NCBI GenBank assembly: GCA_963751455.1
Contig: CAVVUN010000015.1
Span: 896,001-960,000, forward strand
Direction: 5' to 3'
From: Nitrospirota bacterium
GTDB lineage: Bacteria > Nitrospirota > UBA9217
DNA length: 64,000 nucleotides
Position numbers and translations under genes: made by a program. Under the pieces are notes generated by a model. It did no database searches. It worked only from the letters and a program-made list of their open reading frames with translations, and was not told the DNA's origin. This document shows positions 4,465 to 63,351 of this stretch, piece after piece; within the stretch, counting starts at the first letter, position 1; every line of letters begins with the position of its first letter.

Positions 4465-5547
4465 ATGAGCAACACCATTCCCCGAAAAAAAACAAAACAA
4501 ATCACCGTGAGAGGCGTGAAGATCGGCGGCGGAGCGCCCGTCGCGGTCCAATCCATGTGCAACACGGATACGCGCGACGTGCCGAAGACCATCCAGCAGA
4601 TCGGCCGACTGGAGCAGGCCGGCTGTGAAATCGTGCGACTTGCCGTGCCCGACATGGATGCGGCAAAAGCGATCCATAAAATCAGGCAACACGTTCATAT
4701 TCCTCTGATCGCCGACATACACTTCGACTACCGTCTGGCAATCGAGGCAGTGAAGCAGGGCATCGACGGCCTCAGGATCAATCCAGGAAATATCGGGGGC
4801 AGGGACAAGGTTTCCGAAGTAGTGCGCGCATGCAAAGACAGGGGCATTCCTATCAGGATCGGAGTAAACGCGGGATCGCTCGAAAAGCCTCTTCTCGAAA
4901 AGTACGGGCATCCCGCGCCCGAGGCTATCGTCGAGAGCGCGTTTGGACATATCCGCATCCTTGAAGACCTGAATTTTACGGACGTGAAGGCTTCGCTCAA
5001 GGCATCCGACGTGCTGACCACCGTTGCATCCTATCGTCTCTTTTCGCAACAGTCCGACTATCCGCTTCATATCGGCATCTCCGAGGCCGGTACGATCTTT
5101 TCCGGCACAATCAAATCGAGCGTCGGCCTGGGTATTCTTCTTTCCGAGGGCATCGGCGACACGATGCGTGTTTCGCTCACCGCGGACCCGGTGGAAGAAG
5201 TACGGGTCTCGTACGAAATACTCAAGTCGCTCAAAATCAGGCAGCGCGGAATAAACCTCATCTCCTGTCCGACCTGTGGAAGGACCGAGATCGACATCAT
5301 AGGCCTTGCGCAGGAAGTCGAGCGTCGGCTCGCGCATATCAAAGAACCGATCACCGTCGCGGTCATGGGCTGCGTGGTGAACGGTCCGGGCGAGGCGCGC
5401 GAAGCTGACGCGGGCATTGCGGGAGGCAAGGGCACGGGTCTTCTGTTTAAGTGCGGTGAGATCGTAAAGAAGCTTCCTGAAGCGGAGCTCGCCGATGCGC
5501 TCGTGAAGGAAGTTGAAGAAATCGTTGCGAAAAGCAGAAGACAGTAG
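4465..5547 (+). CDS. ispG: HMBPP synthase
   Basis: VQSMCNT, IADIHFD, RINPGNIG, ISCPTCGR, VMGCVVNGPGEA. Confidence 0.98.
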   Translation: MSNTIPRKKTKQITVRGVKIGGGAPVAVQSMCNTDTRDVPKTIQQIGRLEQAGCEIVRLAVPDMDAAKAIHKIRQHVHIPLIADIHFDYRLAIEAVKQGIDGLRINPGNIGGRDKVSEVVRACKDRGIPIRIGVNAGSLEKPLLEKYGHPAPEAIVESAFGHIRILEDLNFTDVKASLKASDVLTTVASYRLFSQQSDYPLHIGISEAGTIFSGTIKSSVGLGILLSEGIGDTMRVSLTADPVEEVRVSYEILKSLKIRQRGINLISCPTCGRTEIDIIGLAQEVERRLAHIKEPITVAVMGCVVNGPGEAREADAGIAGGKGTGLLFKCGEIVKKLPEAELADALVKEVEEIVAKSRRQ

Positions 5548-5618
5548 ACAGAAGTCAGGAGTCAGAAGTGGAGTACCATGCCTTTTTCCCTGACTCCTGT
5601 CTCCTGAATTCTGTATTC
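5535..5618. repeat. 7-nt-periodic inverted repeat overlapping the ispG stop codon
   Basis: cagaaga-cagtaga-cagaagt-caggagt-cagaag ... ctgactc-ctgtctc-ctgaatt-ctgtatt. Confidence 0.75.
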
Positions 5619-10265: not shown

Positions 10266-10429
10266 CCTGAAAAAAGCAGTTGGACACGGATAAAATCTGA
10301 TCAACACGGATTTATAGGAAGTTACGAACAGTAATGGATTCACCCAAAAGGCGAGATGGCTTTTTGCTCTATCACATTGTTTTGATCCGCTGTTACCGTG
10401 TTCATCCGTGTTCAAATGCCGTTTTTAGG
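10266..10429 (+). mobile_element. 164-bp CCT...AGG MITE, copy 1 (target duplication ATCAT)
   Basis: Imperfect 26-bp TIR; differs from the copies at 46882 and 49401 by one base; ATCAT at 10261-10265 and 10430-10434. Confidence 0.92.
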
Positions 10430-14290: not shown

Positions 14291-14376
14291 TATCCGCAGA
14301 TTACACAGATGTCGCAGATTTGAAAAGACTAAATGAAATCTGGTTTAATCAGTGAAATCTGCGTAATCTGCGGATA
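14291..14376. repeat. 9-nt-periodic inverted repeat element
   Basis: tatccgcagattacacagatgtcgcagatt ... aatcagtgaaatctgcgtaatctgcggata. Confidence 0.8.
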
Positions 14377-18330: not shown

Positions 18331-18410
18331 TCCGCAGATTTCGCCGATTGCACAGATTAAATCAAACCTGAATTATTTTTTATATCTGCGTCATCCGCGG
18401 AATCTGCGGA
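18331..18410. repeat. 9-nt-periodic inverted repeat element
   Basis: tccgcagatttcgccgattgcacagatt ... atctgcgtcatccgcggaatctgcgga. Confidence 0.8.
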
Positions 18411-22306: not shown

Positions 22307-24314
22307 GTGAAAAAACCAGCAGCCCTGCTGCTTCTCGTGCTTGTCACCGCAAGCGGAGTACCTGCCCAGCAGGCGCCTTCCGCCCCTGCCGCCACTCCTG
22401 CTCAGAAACAGGCGGATGTTCCCAAAATCAAGGTCCGCGACGATTTCGTTACGCTGAACTTTACGAACATCGACATCTCCGCCCTTGTCAAGGTAATGAG
22501 CGAGCTTATGGGGCGTAATTTTCTTCTTGATGAACGCGTTACCGGCAAGGTGACGCTTATGACGCCGAAGAAAATATCGCCGGGAGAAGCGTATCAGGTA
22601 TTTCTTTCCGCGCTCGAGTTGAAGGGTTTTACGGCTGTTGACGACGGAAAGATCACCAGGATTATTCCGTCTGCGACGGCCCGCCAGAGCGGGCTCAAGG
22701 TGTACCAGGATGATGATTTTTCAGGCCAGGGATTCGTCACCAAGCTTATCCGGCTGTCGTACGTCAATCCCAATGAAATTGTGCGCACGCTCACGCCGCT
22801 CGTCAGCAAGGACGGGTCGATGATCTCGTACCCGGCAACGAGCTCGATCATCATTACGGAATCCGTCCATAATATCAGAAAAATGGAGAGCCTGATCGGT
22901 GCGCTGGATGTGCCGGCCCCCGAAGGCAGGGGCAAGATCAACGTCTATTACCTGAGGCACGCCAATTCCGAGGATTTTGCGAAGGTAATGTCGGCGCTTG
23001 TTGCGCGGCTGCCGGTACCGCCGCCGGGGGCAGCCCCAGACGGGGCCATCGACCATTCTTGAAGGCCAGGTCACGATCAGTTCGGATAAGGCGACGAACG
23101 CGCTGATCATCGTGGCTTCGCCGGGCGATTTCGAAACCATCAAGGATGTGATCCAGAAGCTGGATATCAGGCGGCGGCAGGTCTACGTCGAGGTCGCGAT
23201 CATAGAAATGAGCCTGAACAAACAGCGGGAACTGGGCTTCGAGTTCCAGGCCGCCAATCTGAACCAGCTCGATAACCCCAACAAGATTACCGCTGTCGGA
23301 GGCACGAATTACGGAACTATCGGGAACGTGGTCTTGAACGGACCCGCCGGACTGGCAGGCTTGAACGGTCTTGCCGTCGGCGCGGTTAAAGGAACATTCA
23401 GGTTCAGGGGCCAGGAATTCCTGAACGTGGGCGCGCTGCTGCGCGCGCTCCAGACGGACAGCGACGTGAACGTGCTTTCGACCCCGAACATTCTAACCAC
23501 GGACAACATGAAGGCAGAGATTATGGTCGGCGAAAACGTGCCCTTTGTAGGGAGCCAGACCCAATCGGCGACTACGGGGGGCGTCCCAACGTACAATATC
23601 GAGCGAAAGGACGTAGGCATCACGCTCAAACTGACGCCGCAGATCACCTCGGATGACAACGTGAAGCTTGATATAAACCAGGAAATTTCATCTATCATTG
23701 CGACAGCAGGGATTAATCCCAACCTGCTCGGACCGAGCACAAGCAAACGTTCCGCAACGACGACCGTCGTGGTCAAGGACCGCGAGACCATGGTCATCGG
23801 CGGCCTCATCCGGGACAATGTAACGTCGTCGACATCGAAGGTCCCGCTCCTGGGCGATATCCCGCTCCTGGGATGGTTCTTCAAATCGAAAACGGCGAGG
23901 GTTGAAAAAACAAACCTTATGATTTTTATTACTCCGTATATCATTAAGAACGAGAACGAGGCTGAGGAAATCACCCGCAGAAAAGGAGAGGGCCTCGAGG
24001 ATTTCCGTAAACAGCACGGGATCGAAAAGAAACGCACCCAGCCGACACTGCTTATGCCCTCACCTTCCGGAGAAATTACCGGTACGACCGGTACAACCGT
24101 GAGCGGAACGGGTACTCCCGTGACCGGAACAACTGGGACGAATGGTACAAGCGGTACGACCGGCACAAACGAGCACAACATGAACAGCAAGGACCTGCAG
24201 TCCGGACCCACGAACACCGGCGAGGTCATTCAATCGGAACCCACGGGTACGGGCGAGTTCATTCAATCTGAACCCACGGGTACGATACCGGACGCCGGGG
24301 AGGGCCAGCGGTGA
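22307..24314 (+). pseudogene. gspD: T2SS secretin D split by a +1 frameshift at G5 (23026-23030); may be a sequencing error
   Basis: ORF 22307-23062 has the signal peptide and N domains; ORF 22998-24314 has the secretin core (QVYVEVAI, KVPLLGDIPLLGWFF). Confidence 0.85.
24219..24284 (+). repeat. Two 33-bp tandem units in the gspD 3' end
   Basis: ggcgag(g/t)tcattcaatc(g/t)gaacccacgggtacg twice, encoding GE(V/F)IQSEPTGT. Confidence 0.9.
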
Positions 24315-26005: not shown

Positions 26006-26152
26006 GCCAAATAGCAAATACCGCCCTGCACTCGCGACAAGCGCTCGTTACTGCTGGGTGCAAGCAAATCCCAAATTATATTCAAAAAGAGAAATCTCAA
26101 TTTCCAAAACATAGGAATTTGGGTTTGGAGACTGTCATTTGGGAGTTTGATT
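26006..26152. repeat. 7-nt-periodic (CAAATNC) inverted repeat containing a 43-nt GC-rich insert at 26023-26065
   Basis: caaatag-caaatac-[gccctgcac...gtgcaagc]-aaatcc-caaatt ... atttggg arms. Confidence 0.7.
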
Positions 26153-26161
26153 TAAGGATAT

Positions 26162-27379
26162 ATGCCAGTCTACGTATATAAAGGTGTAACCACTCTCGGG
26201 AAAAAAGTCTCCGGTGTCCAGGACGGGGAAGGACTGAAGTCCGTCCGGGCGAAGCTGAAAAAGGACGGGGTTGTCGTACTCGAGATCCACGAAGGAAGCG
26301 GAATCCGGGCCCGGGGATCAAGGGAGTTCAGGCTCGGCGCCGGCAGAGTACGGCTCGGCGACCTGGCAAACGCGACACGGCAGCTGGCGACGCTTCTTTC
26401 CTCGGGCCTTCCGCTCATGGACTCGCTCACAGTGCTCGTGGAGCAGGAGGAAAATCAGGGACTGAAGAGCGCGCTTTCATCGGTTCGGGACGACGTGCGG
26501 GAAGGCGCCTCCCTTGCGGATGCCCTTAAGGCGAATCCGAAGGCATTTTCTCAGCTGTACGTCAACATGGTCTCTGCAGGCGAGGCGAGCGGAACGCTGG
26601 AAATTACGCTTGACCGGCTGGCGGATTTTCTCGAAGAGCAGGTGCGGTTCCGCGGCAAGTTCACCGCCGCACTCGCTTATCCCGTGCTCATGACGATTGT
26701 CGGCGTGGGGGTGCTCTTTTTCCTGTTCAGCTTCGTGCTGCCCCGCGTGGTGGGCATGTTCGACGACATGAAACAGCAGCTTCCGTTTATCACCCTGGCC
26801 CTGCTGGCGCTCGTGAGACTCTTTTCGTCTTTCTGGTGGGCGATCCTGATAGTGTTCGGAGGGACCGCATATTATCTGAGACGGTTCTTCAGTACGCCCG
26901 CGGGAAAAACCCGGCTGGACGAATGGCTCCTGCGGATGCCCGTGTTCGGGACCCTTATCCGGATGATCGCGGTCTCCCGTTTTACCAGAACACTCGGAAC
27001 GCTGCTGGAGAGCGGCGTGCCTGCGCTGACCGCGCTCGATATCGTCAAAAACGTTATCGGCAACTCGGTGCTTGCCGATGCCGTGCATAAGGCGCGCGAG
27101 AACGTGCGGGAAGGCGAGCCGATTGCCGATCCGCTGAGGAGAAGCGGGCTGTTCCCCCCGGTCGTGGTCCAGATGGTCGCCGTGGGCGAAAAGAGCGGTG
27201 AACTCGAAAAGATGCTTCTAAAGATATCCGATTCCTTCGACCGCACAGTGGAAACGCGGATCACGGCGCTTATGTCGCTTCTCGAGCCTGTTATCATTCT
27301 TGCGATGGGCTTGATTGTCGGATTTATCGTGATTGCAATCATGCTGCCGATACTCCAGATGAGTTCGGGAGTGAGGTAA
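26162..27379 (+). CDS. gspF: T2SS inner-membrane platform protein F
   Basis: TRQLATLL, GEASG, ALAYP, GEKSGEL, LEPVII. Confidence 0.95.
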   Translation: MPVYVYKGVTTLGKKVSGVQDGEGLKSVRAKLKKDGVVVLEIHEGSGIRARGSREFRLGAGRVRLGDLANATRQLATLLSSGLPLMDSLTVLVEQEENQGLKSALSSVRDDVREGASLADALKANPKAFSQLYVNMVSAGEASGTLEITLDRLADFLEEQVRFRGKFTAALAYPVLMTIVGVGVLFFLFSFVLPRVVGMFDDMKQQLPFITLALLALVRLFSSFWWAILIVFGGTAYYLRRFFSTPAGKTRLDEWLLRMPVFGTLIRMIAVSRFTRTLGTLLESGVPALTALDIVKNVIGNSVLADAVHKARENVREGEPIADPLRRSGLFPPVVVQMVAVGEKSGELEKMLLKISDSFDRTVETRITALMSLLEPVIILAMGLIVGFIVIAIMLPILQMSSGVR

Positions 27380-27389
27380 GAATTAATTT

Positions 27390-27553
27390 TAGCCACAGAT
27401 GAACGCGGGTGAACACAGATAAGGACGGAAACCACGGGAGCTTCGCTCACACGGGCTTCGCGTCACGGTAAAAAATAAAGCCTGCTTTTGCTTTAAAACC
27501 GGGAATTTTATCTGTGTGTGCGGCGGAGCCGCACCCGTGTTTATCCGTGGTTA
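27390..27553. repeat. 10-nt-periodic inverted repeat element (empty counterpart of the GxxExxY cassette)
   Basis: tagccacagatgaacgcgggtgaacacagat ... atctgtgtgtgcggcggagccgcacccgtgtttatccgtggtta. Confidence 0.8.
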
Positions 27554-27576
27554 CAAATGCATTTAGGAGGTTGTTC

Positions 27577-28008
27577 ATGAAGAATCAGAAAGGTTTTACC
27601 CTAATCGAGATCATGGTCGTGGTCATTATCCTCGGTCTTCTCGCGGGGCTGGTGCTGCCCAGGATCCTCGGGCAGGAGGAAAAGGCGAAGGTCGAGTCTG
27701 CCAAGGTGCAGATCCGGTCGCTTGAAGACGCGCTGGATGCATACAAGCTCGACAACGGCTTCTATCCGACAACGGACCAGGGCCTGGAGGCCCTGATTAA
27801 AAAACCCGAAGCAGGACGGGTCCCGGTAAAATGGCGCGAAGGCGGTTACCTGAAACCCGCTCGGATTCCGAAGGACCCCTGGAGCAAGGATTTTGTATTT
27901 CTTTCTCCGGGAAACGAAGGCCGGGAGTATGATATCGTCTCTTACGGTGCAGACAATGAGCCGGGAGGCGAAGGCAACAATGCGGACATTGAAAGCTGGA
28001 AAATGTAG
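27577..28008 (+). CDS. gspG: T2SS major pseudopilin G
   Basis: MKNQKG|FTLIE, YPTTDQGLEAL, PKDPW, SYGAD; RBS AGGAGG. Confidence 0.96.
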   Translation: MKNQKGFTLIEIMVVVIILGLLAGLVLPRILGQEEKAKVESAKVQIRSLEDALDAYKLDNGFYPTTDQGLEALIKKPEAGRVPVKWREGGYLKPARIPKDPWSKDFVFLSPGNEGREYDIVSYGADNEPGGEGNNADIESWKM

Positions 28009-28684
28009 TAAGTATCATTGCGGAATAGAGGTCGAGACAAAAATCCGAAATCCGAAATTCGCTTGCACCCAGTCGGTTACGAGTGCGGCAGCGCGAGCCT
28101 GCGCCCAACGAATTCGAGTGCGTCCGCGCGAGAGTCCGGGTGTGCAGGGCGAAATCCGAAATAGGAAGGGTTTTACCCTCATCGAGCTTGCTGTCGTAAT
28201 CGCGATACTGGGCATTATGATCGCTCTGGTTGCGCCGCGGATGGGCGAACTCGGTGAAGCGAATTTGAAGCGAAGCGCCAGGCACCTGACGGGCATGATC
28301 CGCTTTCTTCACGATGAGGCCCAGGCAAAAAAGACAGAGTATCGCCTTACCTTCGACGTGCCGGGTGGTCATTACTGGGCGGAGACGTGGGTATACACGG
28401 ATGACGTGGCAGGATCGGGTGATAAACCCGCATTCAGAACCAGGGAGCTCAAGCGTTATCAGTCGGCTATTGCCGGAGAAGGATCTCTTTCTGGTGAGAC
28501 TAAATTTCGCGACATTGTCGTAGCGAGCCATCCAGACGATGCTTACATGCTGTTCACACCCGATGGCTGGGTCGAGCACGCGCTCATTCATCTCCGGGAC
28601 GGCAGCGACCGCGATTTTACGCTGGTTGTGAAACCGCTTACCGGCGCTACCGAACTCCGTGAAGGGTATGTGGAGGAACGGTAA
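27980..28684 (+). CDS. gspH: Minor pseudopilin H with repeat-expanded leader (alternative GTG start at 28142)
   Basis: G|FTLIELAVV; MRTLKAG start overlapping the gspG end. Confidence 0.8.
   Translation: MRTLKAGKCSKYHCGIEVETKIRNPKFACTQSVTSAAARACAQRIRVRPRESPGVQGEIRNRKGFTLIELAVVIAILGIMIALVAPRMGELGEANLKRSARHLTGMIRFLHDEAQAKKTEYRLTFDVPGGHYWAETWVYTDDVAGSGDKPAFRTRELKRYQSAIAGEGSLSGETKFRDIVVASHPDDAYMLFTPDGWVEHALIHLRDGSDRDFTLVVKPLTGATELREGYVEER
28061..28150 (+). repeat. 45-nt element with a second 45-nt element nested inside (28097-28141)
   Basis: Outer parts match 29293-29337 at 43 of 45 nt; inserted into AAATCCG 7-mers. Confidence 0.8.
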
Positions 28685-29146: not shown

Positions 29147-29978
29147 TTCAATTACGGATTGTACCATGCTCTTGCGATACGCGGGCACACGCAAAATGCG
29201 GAGTGGAGCCCCCTCCGGCAGGAGCCGGGGGATGCCAAGGCGCGGGATTGCGGATTGGAAAAGCAGTAATCAAAATCCAAAATCCGAAATTCGCCTGCAC
29301 CCGGTCGGTTACGAGTGCGGCAGCGCGAGTGCAGGGCGAAATCCGCAAGCGAAAGGGTTTACCCTCCTTGAGGTTCTCCTCGCCATGGCGATTTTAGCCA
29401 TTATCAGCACGGTGATATACGGCACCTTTACGAATTCAGCCAGGAATATCGAGCAGGCCGAGCAGAGCCGGGATGAAACCGATATGGCGCGCGCACTCCT
29501 AGGCCGGCTTTCGAACGATATTGCCAATGCGTATACCAAGAGTACCATTACCAACATACCGGTAATATTTTACGGGAAAAAAGAAGAGCTTTCCGGTGAG
29601 ACCGGGAAAGAGGATTATAAAATCAGGCACGACGAAATCCACATGACGACGCTCACAAACTGGCCTAAACACGAGTCGAAAGAAACGGAGCTGTGGGAAG
29701 TAGGATATTTTTTTAAGGAAAAGCCGGAAGGAAAAGGATACACGCTATTCCGTCGCGAAAAGCGGGAGCTGAGCAGCAGTGTGCCTGCCCTTGATGGCGG
29801 CACGGAGTACGAGATAACGGACCGGGTGAAAAGCCTTCAAATCAAGTATCTGGACGGATCAAACTGGACTGATAACGGCTGGAACAGAAGAACATCGCCT
29901 CCAAGGGCCGCTGAAATAGTTATTATTTTCGATAGTGGCAAGCTGTATACCACGAAGGTCGATGTAGGAAGCAGTTAG
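29139..29978 (+). CDS. gspJ: Minor pseudopilin J with 73-aa repeat-derived leader
   Basis: G|FTLLEVLLAMAIL; start overlaps the gspI stop. Confidence 0.85.
   Translation: MNDSITDCTMLLRYAGTRKMRSGAPSGRSRGMPRRGIADWKSSNQNPKSEIRLHPVGYECGSASAGRNPQAKGFTLLEVLLAMAILAIISTVIYGTFTNSARNIEQAEQSRDETDMARALLGRLSNDIANAYTKSTITNIPVIFYGKKEELSGETGKEDYKIRHDEIHMTTLTNWPKHESKETELWEVGYFFKEKPEGKGYTLFRREKRELSSSVPALDGGTEYEITDRVKSLQIKYLDGSNWTDNGWNRRTSPPRAAEIVIIFDSGKLYTTKVDVGSS
29293..29337 (+). repeat. 45-nt GC-rich element with cctgcac/gtgcagg ends
   Basis: gcctgcacccggtcggttacgagtgcggcagcgcgagtgcagggc inside an AATCCGA array. Confidence 0.8.
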
Positions 29979-29983
29979 GAACA

Positions 29984-30832
29984 ATGGAATCTGGAGACAT
30001 AAAAAAAAGGCGGACAGTAAACGGGGATGAACGAGGGATTGCGCTCCTGATCGTGCTGCTGGTTACGGCGCTTCTGATTGCACTTATCTTTGAATTCGCC
30101 TACGCCACCCGCATCAGCATGAACAGCGCGGTGAATTTTCGAGACAGCCAGCGTGCGTATTTCCTTGCCCGCTCCGGCATCACGGCGTTCAAAAAATACG
30201 GCCAGGCACTTCGCGACATTATTCCGCAGGGTGTCTGGAGCCCGATTCCCGGCATCGGTGAGGCGGATACCATAATTATGGCCAAATGGGAAGATGAATC
30301 GGGCAAGATCAAAATTAATGACATAAGAAATAAGGCAACGCAGGAAGTGGTCGGTAAGCTATTTGAGAACAAGGGAATCGAAACGGATGTGGTTACCAAT
30401 ATGGCGGCGCAATCGGTTGATATCGGCAAAATAACACTATTGTCGGAACTCCGTCAGTACATGAGCGGGGATGACTTTGAAAAAATTTCGAGTTTTTTGA
30501 CGATTGCTCCGGTAAGCAATAACGAAGTAAAAATTAATGTAAACACTGCCGCTGCTGATGTACTTCAGAGTCTCGGAATAGATGCCTATGAAGCGGATAG
30601 AATTGTCAAAGAAGGGCAAAGTAAACCGTATGTTGCCGAGGATCTGACGAGCAGGGGAAGACTAGCAACTCTTTCAAATATAAAAATTGATGGATTGATC
30701 CTTCCTGTTCTTTTAAAAACGCAATCAAGCGGTTTTTATAAAATTTATGCCTACGCTACGGTAGGCGGATATACCAAGCAGGTTGAGGCTATTCTAAACG
30801 GAACCAGTGTTTCCTACTGGAGAGCATTGTGA
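29984..30832 (+). CDS. gspK: Minor pseudopilin K
   Basis: ERG|IALLIVLLV, DESGKI, KINVNTA. Confidence 0.88.
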   Translation: MESGDIKKRRTVNGDERGIALLIVLLVTALLIALIFEFAYATRISMNSAVNFRDSQRAYFLARSGITAFKKYGQALRDIIPQGVWSPIPGIGEADTIIMAKWEDESGKIKINDIRNKATQEVVGKLFENKGIETDVVTNMAAQSVDIGKITLLSELRQYMSGDDFEKISSFLTIAPVSNNEVKINVNTAAADVLQSLGIDAYEADRIVKEGQSKPYVAEDLTSRGRLATLSNIKIDGLILPVLLKTQSSGFYKIYAYATVGGYTKQVEAILNGTSVSYWRAL

Positions 30833-32184
30833 AAATTGTTGGTCTTAAAATAGAAAAGGGGCTGGTTTCCGCTTCCCTTGTTGAAAAGGGTTTCCGTATT
30901 GATAAAGGTTTCGGCAGCACGGAACTGGTCGATTCTTTCACCCGTCCCTATACGAGCGAAGCGGAGCTGGTGGAGATCCTGAACAGCAGTTCCAAAAGCT
31001 GGGAAGGAGCAACGATCGTCTCCGCCATACCCGGGCACCTCTTCAGCCAGCGTCTGGTCCATTTTCCGTTTTCGGACTACAAACGGGTCGAAAAGGCATT
31101 GCCATTCGAGGTCGAGGACAGCCTGCCTTTCCCAATCGACGACGTGATAATCGACCACGTGGTCCTGAACGGCATCAAAGGAGGCAAGGGCGGGGATGCA
31201 ATGACCGAGGCGGCCGTGCTGTGCATGCTGCTCCCCAAAGAGGTCCTGAAGCGGCATCTCGAAATGCTTGCCGCCGCGGGAATTGATCCACAGGTTGTCG
31301 TGCCTTCATACGTCGGCCTGCATTCGCTTTCAAAAATGATGCCGGTCGAAGGGTGCATAATCATGACCTGCGGCAAGGATTTTTGTCTCCGCGCTGACGG
31401 AGCCATAAAAGCGCTGAGAAGCTTCTCAGACGGGGGAGCTACCGCCGGTTTGCTCCATACGGTCAAGGCTCTGGAGACCGAGTGCAAGGAGCGGGTGGAA
31501 AAGGCCGTGCTTCTCTGCCCCAACGGCGAGGAACAGGACCGGCTTGCGCAGCTTGGTATTGCAGTCGAGCATGTGGCGCCGGAACTGGGCGGCAAAAAAG
31601 CAGCTGATCCGCTCAGCCTCGGTATCGCCCTCGCCGAACAGATCAATTTCCGGAAAGGCGAATTCGGCTATCATGTCGAGGACCAGGACGTACGCCGCAG
31701 AAAAATGACGCTCGCAGCGGCCGCCGCGGTTGCCGTGGTGCTTTTCATCGCCAACCTCGGCGTCAAATTTTACGTGATTGAAACGTCCTATGGCAAACTG
31801 GACAAAGAGATCAGGGCCATTTACCGGCAGGCCGTACCGGATGCGAAGTCGGTCGTCGACCCGGTCAGGCAGCTGAGGAGCAGTTTCGAAGACGCGAAAC
31901 GCAAGTACGGAGTGCTTGGAACCGGAACCTCGGCGCTGGATGCGATGAAGGCGGTGAACGACGGCATACCCAAGGAAGTGCGGTTGGTGTTCCAGGAGTT
32001 CAACCTGGAAGGAGACCGGCTGAAGCTCCAAGGTGAGGCTTCGTCGTTCGAATCCGTGGATAAGATCAAGGCTGAATTGCAGAAGTCGGAACTGTTCAGC
32101 GAGATTACGGTCCTGGATACGAGAATGGGCACGGATAACAAGGTGAAGTTCCGGTTGGACATCAAACTGAAGCAGGCGGGGTAA
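30829..32184 (+). CDS. gspL: T2SS protein L
   Basis: Actin-like cytoplasmic domain (LPFEVED), INFRKGEF, single TM, periplasmic domain. Confidence 0.85.
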   Translation: MKIVGLKIEKGLVSASLVEKGFRIDKGFGSTELVDSFTRPYTSEAELVEILNSSSKSWEGATIVSAIPGHLFSQRLVHFPFSDYKRVEKALPFEVEDSLPFPIDDVIIDHVVLNGIKGGKGGDAMTEAAVLCMLLPKEVLKRHLEMLAAAGIDPQVVVPSYVGLHSLSKMMPVEGCIIMTCGKDFCLRADGAIKALRSFSDGGATAGLLHTVKALETECKERVEKAVLLCPNGEEQDRLAQLGIAVEHVAPELGGKKAADPLSLGIALAEQINFRKGEFGYHVEDQDVRRRKMTLAAAAAVAVVLFIANLGVKFYVIETSYGKLDKEIRAIYRQAVPDAKSVVDPVRQLRSSFEDAKRKYGVLGTGTSALDAMKAVNDGIPKEVRLVFQEFNLEGDRLKLQGEASSFESVDKIKAELQKSELFSEITVLDTRMGTDNKVKFRLDIKLKQAG

Positions 32185-32195
32185 CCCGAACGAAT

Positions 32196-32598
32196 TTGTA
32201 ACCACGGATGAACACGGTTAAAAGCTGAGAAACCCCATGAGTGGAGAAAAGGAACTTCTTCATGGGATCTTACTTAAAAAAGATAAAGGTAATCCTCCAA
32301 CAAGAGTTCAAGGTTCTGTACCGGGAAAAAGAAGTAGGTCTCTATTTACGCAGACCTCGTTGTTGAACAGAAGGTAATCGTGGAAGTAAAGTCAGTAGAT
32401 AGAATTGACGATGTTCACCGTGCTCAGATTATGAATTACCTGAGGATATCGGGAGTGCGGATAGGACTGCTGATAAACTTTTCGCGTCCGAAGTTAGAAT
32501 ATGAGAGAATAGTTGTTTAACCGTGTGTTTTGATTTAAACCCGGGATATTTATCTGTGTGTGCGGCGAAGCCGCACCCGTGTTTATCTGTGGTTACAA
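32196..32598. mobile_element. Inverted-repeat-bounded cassette carrying a GxxExxY remnant
   Basis: ttgtaaccacggatgaacacgg ... ccgtgtttatctgtggttacaa (20 of 22 nt inverted match). Confidence 0.75.
32237..32520 (+). pseudogene. GxxExxY-family PD-(D/E)XK protein, deleted and frameshifted
   Basis: Fragments MSGEKELLHG / KVILQQEFKVLYREKEVGLY / YADLVVEQKVIVEVKSV..HRAQIMNYLRISG..GLLINF..*; the GxxExxY segment itself is missing. Confidence 0.85.
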
Positions 32599-32610
32599 TC
32601 AGAGGTTGTT

Positions 32611-33111
32611 GTGAAGTTAGAATCCAGAGATAAAAAAGTTCTGATCATCGGCGGTATCGTCGTGGCGATCATCCTGCTCTACGCCCTCGTCCTCGGCCCC
32701 TTGTATGCGGACTTGTCCCGGAAGCGGGACCTGATTCCGAAAAAGGAAAAGGACCTTGCGGAGATGCGCATTCTGAAGGACGAATACCTCGAAATGCAGA
32801 AACGCCTGCAGCAGCTGCAGGAAGCGGCCGCAAAGCGCGGCCCGCTGCTGACTGAGATCGAGAACATAACAAAACGATCGAACCTGGGAGGCAAGATCGT
32901 TTCGCTCAAGCCGCAGCCCGGCGTTCAGGCGGAAAATTTCAAGGAAAGCATTGTCGAGATCAAGCTCAAGAGCATCACGCTGTATGACGTTCTCAATTAC
33001 GTGAATCTTCTCGAGAAATCCTCGCTCCGCATCAGGAAGCTGTACTTCAAACCGCGCTTCGATAATCCGAAGCTCTTAAACTCCACAATACAGGTTTCGA
33101 GCGCTGGGTAG
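32611..33111 (+). CDS. gspM: T2SS protein M
   Basis: LESRDKKVL, TM, coiled coil; GTG start after AGAGG. Confidence 0.82.
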   Translation: MKLESRDKKVLIIGGIVVAIILLYALVLGPLYADLSRKRDLIPKKEKDLAEMRILKDEYLEMQKRLQQLQEAAAKRGPLLTEIENITKRSNLGGKIVSLKPQPGVQAENFKESIVEIKLKSITLYDVLNYVNLLEKSSLRIRKLYFKPRFDNPKLLNSTIQVSSAG

Positions 33112-44350: not shown

Positions 44351-44524
44351 CCTGAAAACGGCAGTTGGACGCAGATGAACGCAGATAACCACAGATCAAA
44401 CAAAAGATTTTTAGAGAAAAAAATTCACCCGCAGGGTGACTGCTTTTACGATACAAGAACGTTTTTTTATCCGATCTTATCTGCGTTTATCCGATTTTTC
44501 TGCGTCCCAAATGCTTTTTTTAGG
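44351..44524 (+). mobile_element. Divergent relative of the CCT...AGG MITE (174 bp, no clean target duplication)
   Basis: cctgaaaacggcagttggacgcagat ... tctgcgtcccaaatgctttttttagg. Confidence 0.7.
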
Positions 44525-44571
44525 ATCGCAGTCGGGACCCGTGTTCATCTGTGGTTGCTATAAAGAAAAGT

Positions 44572-46881: not shown

Positions 46882-47045
46882 CCTGAAAAAAGCAGTTGGA
46901 CACGGATAAAATCTGATCAACACGGATTTATAGGAAGTTACGAACAGTAATGGATTCACCCAAAAGGCGAGATGGCTTTTTGCTCTATCACATTGTTTTG
47001 ATCCGCTGTTTCCGTGTTCATCCGTGTTCAAATGCCGTTTTTAGG
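46882..47045 (+). mobile_element. 164-bp CCT...AGG MITE, copy 2 (target duplication TTAAT)
   Basis: Identical to copy 3; TTAAT at 46877-46881 and 47046-47050. Confidence 0.92.
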
Positions 47046-49400: not shown

Positions 49401-49564
49401 CCTGAAAAAAGCAGTTGGACACGGATAAAATCTGATCAACACGGATTTATAGGAAGTTACGAACAGTAATGGATTCACCCAAAAGGCGAGATGGCTTTTT
49501 GCTCTATCACATTGTTTTGATCCGCTGTTTCCGTGTTCATCCGTGTTCAAATGCCGTTTTTAGG
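49401..49564 (+). mobile_element. 164-bp CCT...AGG MITE, copy 3 (target duplication ATAAA)
   Basis: ATAAA at 49396-49400 and 49565-49569. Confidence 0.92.
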
Positions 49565-52763: not shown

Positions 52764-52948
52764 TTATCCACAGATTACGCAGATATCGCAGATAAAACCA
52801 CACTGTATTTAGTTTTTTGTAATGATCGTTGACTGCTATGAAGAAAAAGTCAGATCTTTTTAATATGAAATTCTCTCAGCGCTCTTTGCATACTCTGCGA
52901 TTAATTATTCTTTATATAATCTGCGTCATCTGCGTAATCTGCGGATAA
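52764..52948. repeat. 9-nt-periodic inverted repeat element inside the operon
   Basis: ttatccacagattacgcagat ... atctgcgtaatctgcggataa (20 of 21 nt inverted match). Confidence 0.8.
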
Positions 52949-63232: not shown

Positions 63233-63330
63233 AATTTCAAAGTCAAATTTAAAATTGCAAATTGCAAAATGCAAATGTGCGGTATGGCCCCAGGCCATGA
63301 TCACTAATTTTAAATTTTGCACTTTGCAAT
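63233..63330. repeat. 7-nt-periodic (TTGCAAA) inverted repeat
   Basis: aattgca-aattgca-aaatgca-aatg ... ttttgca-ctttgcaat. Confidence 0.65.
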
Positions 63331-63351
63331 GCTAAAGGAAGTCAAAAGACA

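Follow-up and report, generated by a model that had tools for sequence, protein, structure and literature searches.

A recently decayed GxxExxY cassette between gspL and gspM and a candidate nuclease-repeat system with periodic inverted arms

The window analyzed here, i.e. the whole 64,000-nt stretch of DNA, carries a type II secretion operon (gspC to gspN by profile search), in which the gspL-gspM junction holds the remnant of a GxxExxY-family gene enclosed by periodic inverted arms. We see an even chance of the following reading: an old cassette has been broken here recently, its intact predicted nuclease cuts its own arm word, and its arm-bounded DNA is copied by repair. In such a mechanism, an intact GxxExxY protein would recognize its own arm word as extruded or single-stranded DNA and would cut the arm, and host repair would then copy arm-bounded DNA between sites. 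Gene-less hairpins would arise through internal deletion and arm-to-arm copying, and whole cassettes would relocate only rarely; ordinary MITEs amplify some of the hairpins independently. Nuclease activity, arm recognition and a role of the protein in hairpin spread are what we infer from the comparisons below.

The initial annotation had described 22-bp inverted ends around a deleted and frameshifted GxxExxY gene that escapes ORF prediction, and this description holds. The arms, at 32196-32217 and (inverted) 32577-32598, agree in 20 of 22 bases and consist of ~10-nt CACRGAT-type units. The remnant (32338-32520) matches TIGR04256 at profile positions 61-116 with 75 bits (cut-off 35) and PF13366 with 69 bits (cut-off 22), with an intact orthologue reaching 132 bits on the latter profile, and is missing from the list of ORFs of at least 80 aa. 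The gspL-gspM spacer measures 426 nt at 42% G+C in a genome of ~51%, and a ribosome-binding-like site of gspM lies at 32602, immediately beyond the cassette arm. Aligned to five intact orthologues, the gene turns out to have lost ~98 nt directly after its 5' stub (Table 1), a stretch that covers the GxxExxY helix, and the right end of the cassette features 56 nt absent from all five. Having neither the GxxExxY motif, which is present in the orthologues, nor an intact frame, the remnant is a pseudogene. Its decay is recent, as the surviving gene end is as close to the intact orthologues (amino-acid-changing divergence of 0.10-0.16) as these are to one another (0.03-0.16). Since gspD is split in the same assembly, the single-base shifts may be sequencing errors, an explanation that is less likely for the ~98-nt loss and the 56-nt gain. 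The break in gspD itself (window 22307-24314) falls near 23000-23060 and leaves two overlapping frames, reflecting either a pseudogene or an assembly indel.

Table 1. Positions of the gspL-gspM cassette, the gspF-gspG hairpin, their host genes and MITE copies (window numbering unless a contig is given)
Feature	Position	Strand	Basis or remark
gspF	26162-27379	+	TIGR02120 match above cut-off
Two nested left arms of the gene-less gspF-gspG hairpin	27389..27472	+	outer arm 27389-27422; inner arm 27430-27472, common to G014 and G025
Right arm and adjoining spacer of the gspF-gspG hairpin	27486..27556	+	likely donor of the 71-nt tract; mini-hairpin 27516-27534
gspG	27577-28008	+	TIGR01710 match above cut-off
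gspL, upstream host gene	30829..32184	+	TIGR01709 match above cut-off
Cassette left arm with two ~10-nt CACGGAT units	32196..32222	+	starts 11 nt past the gspL stop; same arm in orthologous cassettes
GxxExxY gene, 5' stub with start codon and initial 9 codons	32237..32263	+	comparison with 5 intact orthologues
Out-of-frame middle piece of the GxxExxY gene	32264..32346	+	ends at a 1-nt shift near 32345
C-terminal 57 codons with D...ExK catalytic-type residues	32347..32520	+	profile match and orthologue comparison
Stub of the original right arm	32516..32526	+	overlaps the stop codon, as in intact orthologues
71-nt tract matching the gspF-gspG right arm at 92% identity	32528..32598	+	holds 19-nt mini-hairpin 32558-32576 and outer arm 32577-32598
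gspM, downstream host gene	32611..33111	+	NF040576 match below cut-off; orthologues in relatives
164-bp MITE, three window copies	10266-10429, 46882-47045, 49401-49564		
168-bp MITE	e.g. C1:204792-204959; degenerate end near window 18413		

The gspF-gspG spacer had been described as a twin of the cassette with matching arms and no gene. Its right arm is indeed shared (92% identity over 71 nt between 27486-27556 and 32528-32598, the sole match of such length in the genome, including ~20 nt of non-periodic spacer) and a gene is lacking, and its left side is now resolved into two nested left arms. The further proposal that this hairpin is an emptied derivative of the cassette is not supported: a gene is found at gspF-gspG in none of 38 relatives (29 plus nine more), with the longest junction spanning 291 nt, and copying probably ran the opposite way. 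G014 and G025 carry the distinctive right arm with its mini-hairpin at gspF-gspG, G077 has a decayed version of it there, and at gspL-gspM it is absent from all 12 gene-bearing relatives, among them G014 and G025. This distribution indicates that the gspF-gspG hairpin is older and that its right arm was probably copied into the cassette in the lineage of the window's genome (G000). In the proposed mechanism the 71-nt tract would thus be a probable arm-to-arm copy; host recombination alone could also have produced it. Hybrid hairpins with unlike left and right arms are found at both junctions in other genomes (e.g. G023, G031 and G069 at gspF-gspG) and fit frequent arm exchange or overwriting. 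As a separate observation, mini-hairpins with 3-nt GAA, GGA or AAA loops take the place of the linker between arm units (window 32558-32576 and 27516-27534; C1:282509, C1:17816, C3:375613, C3:375713 and C15:844401), exclusively on the strand reading as right arm (7 vs 0). Such 3-nt hairpin loops are very stable in single-stranded DNA, and the mini-hairpins hint at a strand-specific ssDNA process or at a second tiny arm-targeting element.

The association of gene and arms extends well beyond this locus, as the check proposed by the initial annotation, i.e. whether intact GxxExxY genes carry periodic inverted arms, comes out positive. The 10 TIGR04256 matches of G000 fall at eight loci, all with periodic arms by eye, six of them reaching an arm score of at least 14 and the remaining two scoring 12 and 10.5. 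In a cross-phylum set, which excludes L140-L142 as partial matches, arms at the same threshold are present at 54 of 69 loci versus 2 of 242 displaced controls. In the family set (120 of 236 profile matches plus 16 added loci), 117 of 133 testable loci have arms, 104 of them clearly periodic, distributed over ~58 site clusters by a rough single-linkage count. Gene and arms can thus be regarded as one unit, as had been claimed. The autonomy also claimed for this unit receives no support, the gspL-gspM lineage having kept to a single site from early in the family onwards and DDE-type MITEs having multiplied many gene-less hairpins of G000. Arm words sort by protein clade, also at different sites, and protein and arm similarity correlate across different sites (rho 0.28, reached in 0 of 300 permutations); linkage alone would make arms follow the gene tree. 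Among 62 protein pairs at least 80% identical, 71% share their site and 18 do not, and nearest neighbors are at the same site in 74 of 116 cases. Cassettes 81-93% identical occur in unrelated flanks (L210/L234, L164/L166, L243/L260 and L180/L169), their similarity ending at the arms or just beyond them, as it does in several of 15 aligned pairs among the matches listed. Direct repeats beside the arms of 117 cassettes are at shuffle level, providing no sign of target duplications, and the cassette protein has no recognized transposase chemistry. TIGR04256-type genes are rare both on phages (2 of 50,697 records, one virus) and on plasmids (8 of 72,556). Insertion between co-transcribed genes, another element of the initial annotation, is seen in that 122 of 141 junctions are co-oriented, but this is only a mild preference against a 78.6% background (p = 0.02).

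Several individual cassettes deserve mention in their own right. In G000, the paralogous junctions C12:21596-21931 and C2:30548-30876 each hold a GxxExxY cassette with different arm words. Their neighbors are presumably ferrochelatase and protoporphyrinogen oxidase genes, and the C2 cassette copy and its upstream neighbor carry several frameshifts. At C15:1718986-1719395 the GxxExxY gene is split by ~80-100 nt of unrelated sequence with its arms intact, and a ~140-nt direct repeat flanks the cassette L210 (G078) left and right.

The excerpted text of PMC3424549 lists PF13366 among the PD-(D/E)XK families, with unknown function and many transfers between lineages. A structure model was computed from 56 sequences (alignment A1, 56 of 72 used, with loci carrying stops and some near-duplicates dropped) and features a pLDDT of 95. 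Its best structural matches are restriction-endonuclease-like folds with modest Z-scores, including 4ic1 (Z 8.3, rmsd 3.6, 99 residues aligned), BpuSI (Z 8.2, rmsd 2.2, 89 aligned) and Hjc (Z 6.9, rmsd 3.1, 84 aligned); sequence search retrieved no solved structure at E < 0.7. The motif glutamate and the D...ExK residues (E, D, E, K) are invariant in 134 of 134 family proteins, and protein profile search yields only PF13366 matches, with neither an HUH Y1 tyrosine transposase nor a GIY-YIG domain. Overall, the modeled fold and the invariant residues suggest that the intact protein is likely an active nuclease.

To place the broken copy in its history, we surveyed 48 family genomes with a readable gspL-gspM junction; L076 and L077 were dropped from the analysis as duplicates of G084 and G082. 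A full gene with CACRGAT arms is present in 12 genomes, two of these with a 1-nt shift, remnants in two (G000 and G009), both arms only in two and the right arm only in four; 16 junctions measure at most 60 nt, and the remaining 12 are occupied by different sequence, in many cases hairpins built from further word types. Junction content, whose variation among relatives the initial annotation had proposed as a second check, thus varies widely here, as it does among the 38 relatives at gspF-gspG. Where present, the arms are confined to the space separating the stop codon from the following ribosome-binding site, and carriers occur in scattered parts of the host tree. The eight intact relatives with the closest match (71-100% identity to a relative's intact protein) are all at gspL-gspM, with one contig showing gspM only. 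Seven intact genes at this site feature a pN of 0.12 and a pS of 0.81 (saturated), compared with an amino-acid-changing divergence of 0.16 for the host genes, and by these substitution patterns the cassette gene is under purifying selection. The cassette tree, of low resolution and built from unevenly trimmed gene bodies, does not reject host groupings (AU p 0.33 and 0.07). These patterns are most simply explained by a single old insertion that was maintained by selection and lost on many occasions. Deletion intermediates are represented by the G000 locus itself, by G009 and by a hairpin upstream in L215 that has the 3' end of the gene as its loop. A candidate conversion tract between G082 and G084 was rejected, as the low divergence of the cassette vanished against the whole operon.

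The same record could be read as homing, in which each GxxExxY lineage would be a site-specific endonuclease cutting the empty allele of a single junction and copied in by repair, in cycles of invasion, decay and loss. Such cycles would account for the site-faithful clades, the patchy presence on the host tree, and purifying selection accompanied by frequent pseudogenes. We nevertheless hold homing to be improbable, given a cassette tree compatible with host groupings within its low resolution, an identity around the G082 and G084 cassettes that does not exceed the operon level, and empty junctions that have little sequence in common; moreover, a homing enzyme would not need the arms, and the dispersed words would go unexplained.

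These dispersed words are abundant. At least 269 periodic inverted-repeat clusters are found in G000, most with spacers below 100 nt, in an ungapped census whose counts are lower bounds as it misses many CACRGAT hairpins, including the one at gspF-gspG. The commonest free word classes in G000 are the arm words of its own GxxExxY genes, and blastn finds no convincing match to gene remnants in its gene-less hairpins beyond the known loci. Across 61 genomes, the CACRGAT arm pattern has a median count of 3 in the 14 without the gene versus 39 in the 47 with it (sub-cut-off matches in G035 and G034 being scored as absent), and the contrast is also seen inside genera g11 and g19. Of the 47 positive genomes, the 17 that carry a CGCAAAG-armed gene contain a median of 83 CGCAAAG words and the 30 that do not contain 18.5; with the clade defined by protein identity alone, the medians are 59 (21 genomes) and 18.5 (26 genomes). 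CACRGAT counts are alike in the CGCAAAG-armed-gene split (41 vs 34.5), revealing a co-occurrence that is word-specific. The genomes are related, so that p-values overstate significance, and G066, G071, G023 and G025 contain 114-121 CGCAAAG words with no cognate gene among the matches listed. The likeness to RAYT/REP elements already suggested by the initial annotation is backed by this co-occurrence of gene-less words with genes.

GxxExxY genes are not the only family that tracks the words. CACRGAT counts over the 61 genomes correlate with GxxExxY genes at rho 0.63, with four-helix-bundle genes (TIGR02436) at 0.54 and with Y1 transposases at 0.06. In 56 of the 61 genomes, four-helix-bundle and GxxExxY genes occur together or are missing together, with Y1 transposases uncoupled, and this co-occurrence makes a shared cause of arm abundance possible. 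Arm words of the 7-mer type follow four-helix genes more closely than GxxExxY genes (partial rho 0.38 vs 0.06, 61 genomes), and none of the eight four-helix-bundle loci of G000 reaches an inverted-repeat score of 14. The GxxExxY system may possibly cooperate with co-occurring four-helix-bundle cassettes.

Part of the hairpin population has evidently been multiplied by other means. A 164-bp MITE in G000 with 5-bp target duplications carries a CACGGAT-type hairpin and has 62 genome matches, its copies being mostly 97-100% identical among the matches listed. A 168-bp MITE of ~40 copies carries a CGCAGAT-type hairpin, with exact 8-bp duplications in 65 of 81 strand-hits. The two account for ~100 G000 hairpins and thereby inflate word counts, and a strict end-plus-duplication search retrieved no autonomous partner for either. 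The likeness of the gene-less hairpins to DDE-IS MITEs, as short inverted-repeat elements in many copies, goes as far as these two MITEs carrying the same kind of hairpin; MITEs, however, have terminal repeats and fixed-length target duplications, and both window elements, like the cassettes generally, have neither. These observations bear on a passenger model, where other enzymes transport the cassettes and hairpins (either DDE transposases that use captured IS ends or HUH/RAYT proteins) and GxxExxY genes are retained for different reasons, e.g. a host benefit or self-regulatory arm binding. Besides the two MITEs, such a model can draw on L243, where an entire gene cassette lies within 168-bp MITE ends flanked by an 8-bp duplication, on the IS-like ends of L206, and on 33 Y1_Tnp matches in G000. 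We judge it rather unlikely, as a scan for three end motifs detects IS-like ends on both sides of just 2 of 136 cassettes and neither at the gspL-gspM cassette nor at the gspF-gspG hairpin, where no target-site duplications are seen, as Y1_Tnp counts do not track arm words, and as the word-specific co-occurrence would be left unexplained. Independently of these models, one 168-bp MITE copy interrupts a four-helix-bundle gene at C2:320604-321052. Other G000 genes are likewise flanked by repeats: Y1/RAYT-like genes, so labeled from their translations, lie inside their own ~20-35-bp inverted repeats at C1:545582-546524, C1:555309-556157, C15:1294468-1295415 and C3:252935-253998, a DUF559 gene at C6:154803 has a perfect 30-bp inverted repeat, and a GIY-YIG gene at C7:13701 has inverted flanks.

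A selective role at the RNA level was also considered, in which the arms would pair in the operon transcript and be excised by RNase III or by the protein itself, the element being tolerated or selected as an mRNA-processing device. Both spacers have strong predicted RNA folds (gspL-gspM, z = -4.8, 0 of 100 shuffles as good; gspF-gspG, z = -5.1, 0 of 200), the arms are placed between stop codon and ribosome-binding site, and left and right arms co-vary, those of one element being more alike than the arms of orthologues (permutation p = 0.0002, 13 elements). Template-switch correction of inverted repeats would be expected to yield the same co-variation. Were RNA pairing selected, about one-third of testable arm mismatches would be expected to favor G-U, yet there is no sense-strand G-U excess in the mismatches of 54 cassettes (42 G-U vs 55 A-C), nor any in the co-oriented hairpins of the genome. 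With no Rfam match for the element and no route for its spread, we find this alternative quite unlikely. A natural precedent is provided by the Coxiella 23S rRNA intervening sequence with its S23p ORF, for which the available excerpts of PMC4990558 describe terminal inverted repeats, heptamer repeats and RNase III excision. The cassette is similar in that a small ORF lies within terminal inverted repeats with short tandem repeats and a long stem, but the Coxiella element has a four-helix-bundle cargo and an rRNA site, whereas the cassette encodes a nuclease fold, occupies protein-gene junctions and has no RNA-pairing strand bias; the TIGR02436 matches of G000 lie elsewhere than the gspL-gspM cassette.

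Turning back to the preferred reading of an arm-cutting nuclease with repair-mediated copying, two described systems offer close parallels. In RAYT/REPIN, as outlined in PMC3116915 and PMC5581495, a repeat-flanked Y1 enzyme gene is accompanied by many gene-less intergenic doublets. The cassette shares with this system a small gene for a nucleic-acid enzyme that lies between repeats of its own type, abundant gene-less inverted doublets between genes, a repeat type bound to the enzyme lineage, and a mostly vertical descent with rare occurrence on plasmids and phages. As in RAYT/REPIN, over-represented intergenic inverted doublets match the repeat of the gene and are tied to its presence. The two differ in that the enzyme is PD-(D/E)XK (PF13366) rather than an HUH Y1 tyrosine transposase, in that the arms are tandem arrays of 8-10-nt words whereas REPs are individually palindromic, and in that one arm pair tightly encloses the gene, with several divergent cassettes per genome. 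In the Ssn system, according to PMC11893778, a GIY-YIG enzyme (cd10448) with demonstrated ssDNA cleavage is associated with NTS/SRM repeats that form 20-50-nt self-hairpins. The single-domain nuclease gene, the repeat-gene-repeat layout, the dispersed cognate repeats and, by prediction, the homologue-specific targets recur in the cassette, but its protein has no GIY-YIG match and is a predicted nuclease only, and its arms are periodic rather than self-hairpin repeats; the GIY-YIG genes of G000 are at loci other than the cassette. The GxxExxY cassette would work like RAYT/REPIN or Ssn/SRM but belongs to neither, as its protein lacks the enzyme domain that defines each. A search of the open literature returned no published description of GxxExxY genes with such arms. 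What the gspL-gspM locus adds is a site history, a word-specific co-occurrence and a reversed direction of arm copy.

More broadly, and with somewhat less confidence than in the reading of the locus itself, we propose that GxxExxY proteins may be very small nucleases with sequence specificity, each member of this large family being tuned to the 8-10-nt word found in its own arms. Arm-to-arm copying would seed hundreds of intergenic hairpins per genome and occasionally move the gene without a transposase, which would make this a third independently evolved nuclease-repeat system next to RAYT/REP and Ssn/SRM. The arms provide each PF13366 protein with a predicted substrate and, as different clades have different words, with a built-in specificity control, such that the family becomes directly testable by the assay used for Ssn. 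If true, the proposal would account for a very common type of intergenic repeat in these bacteria and would offer a natural panel of ~125-residue nucleases with different targets, each with a substrate that can be read from its flanks. Although the G000 copy is dead, its site records a life cycle of long residence, decay, loss and arm replacement.

Finally, the window contains further periodic repeats. Gene-less periodic hairpins of 7-, 9- and 10-nt words are located at 5537-5618, 14291-14376, 18331-18410, 44355-44560, 52764-52948 and 63248-63336. A ~40-nt element with 59 motif matches in the genome lies inside 7-mer periodic arrays at 26020-26065, 28055-28150 and 29290-29335, i.e. at the gspE-gspF, gspG-gspH and gspI-gspJ boundaries, and inside arms elsewhere. 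In most of the relatives L042-L070, 7-mer periodic arrays at the gspG-gspH junction extend into the 5' end of gspH and appear to provide its start and leader.
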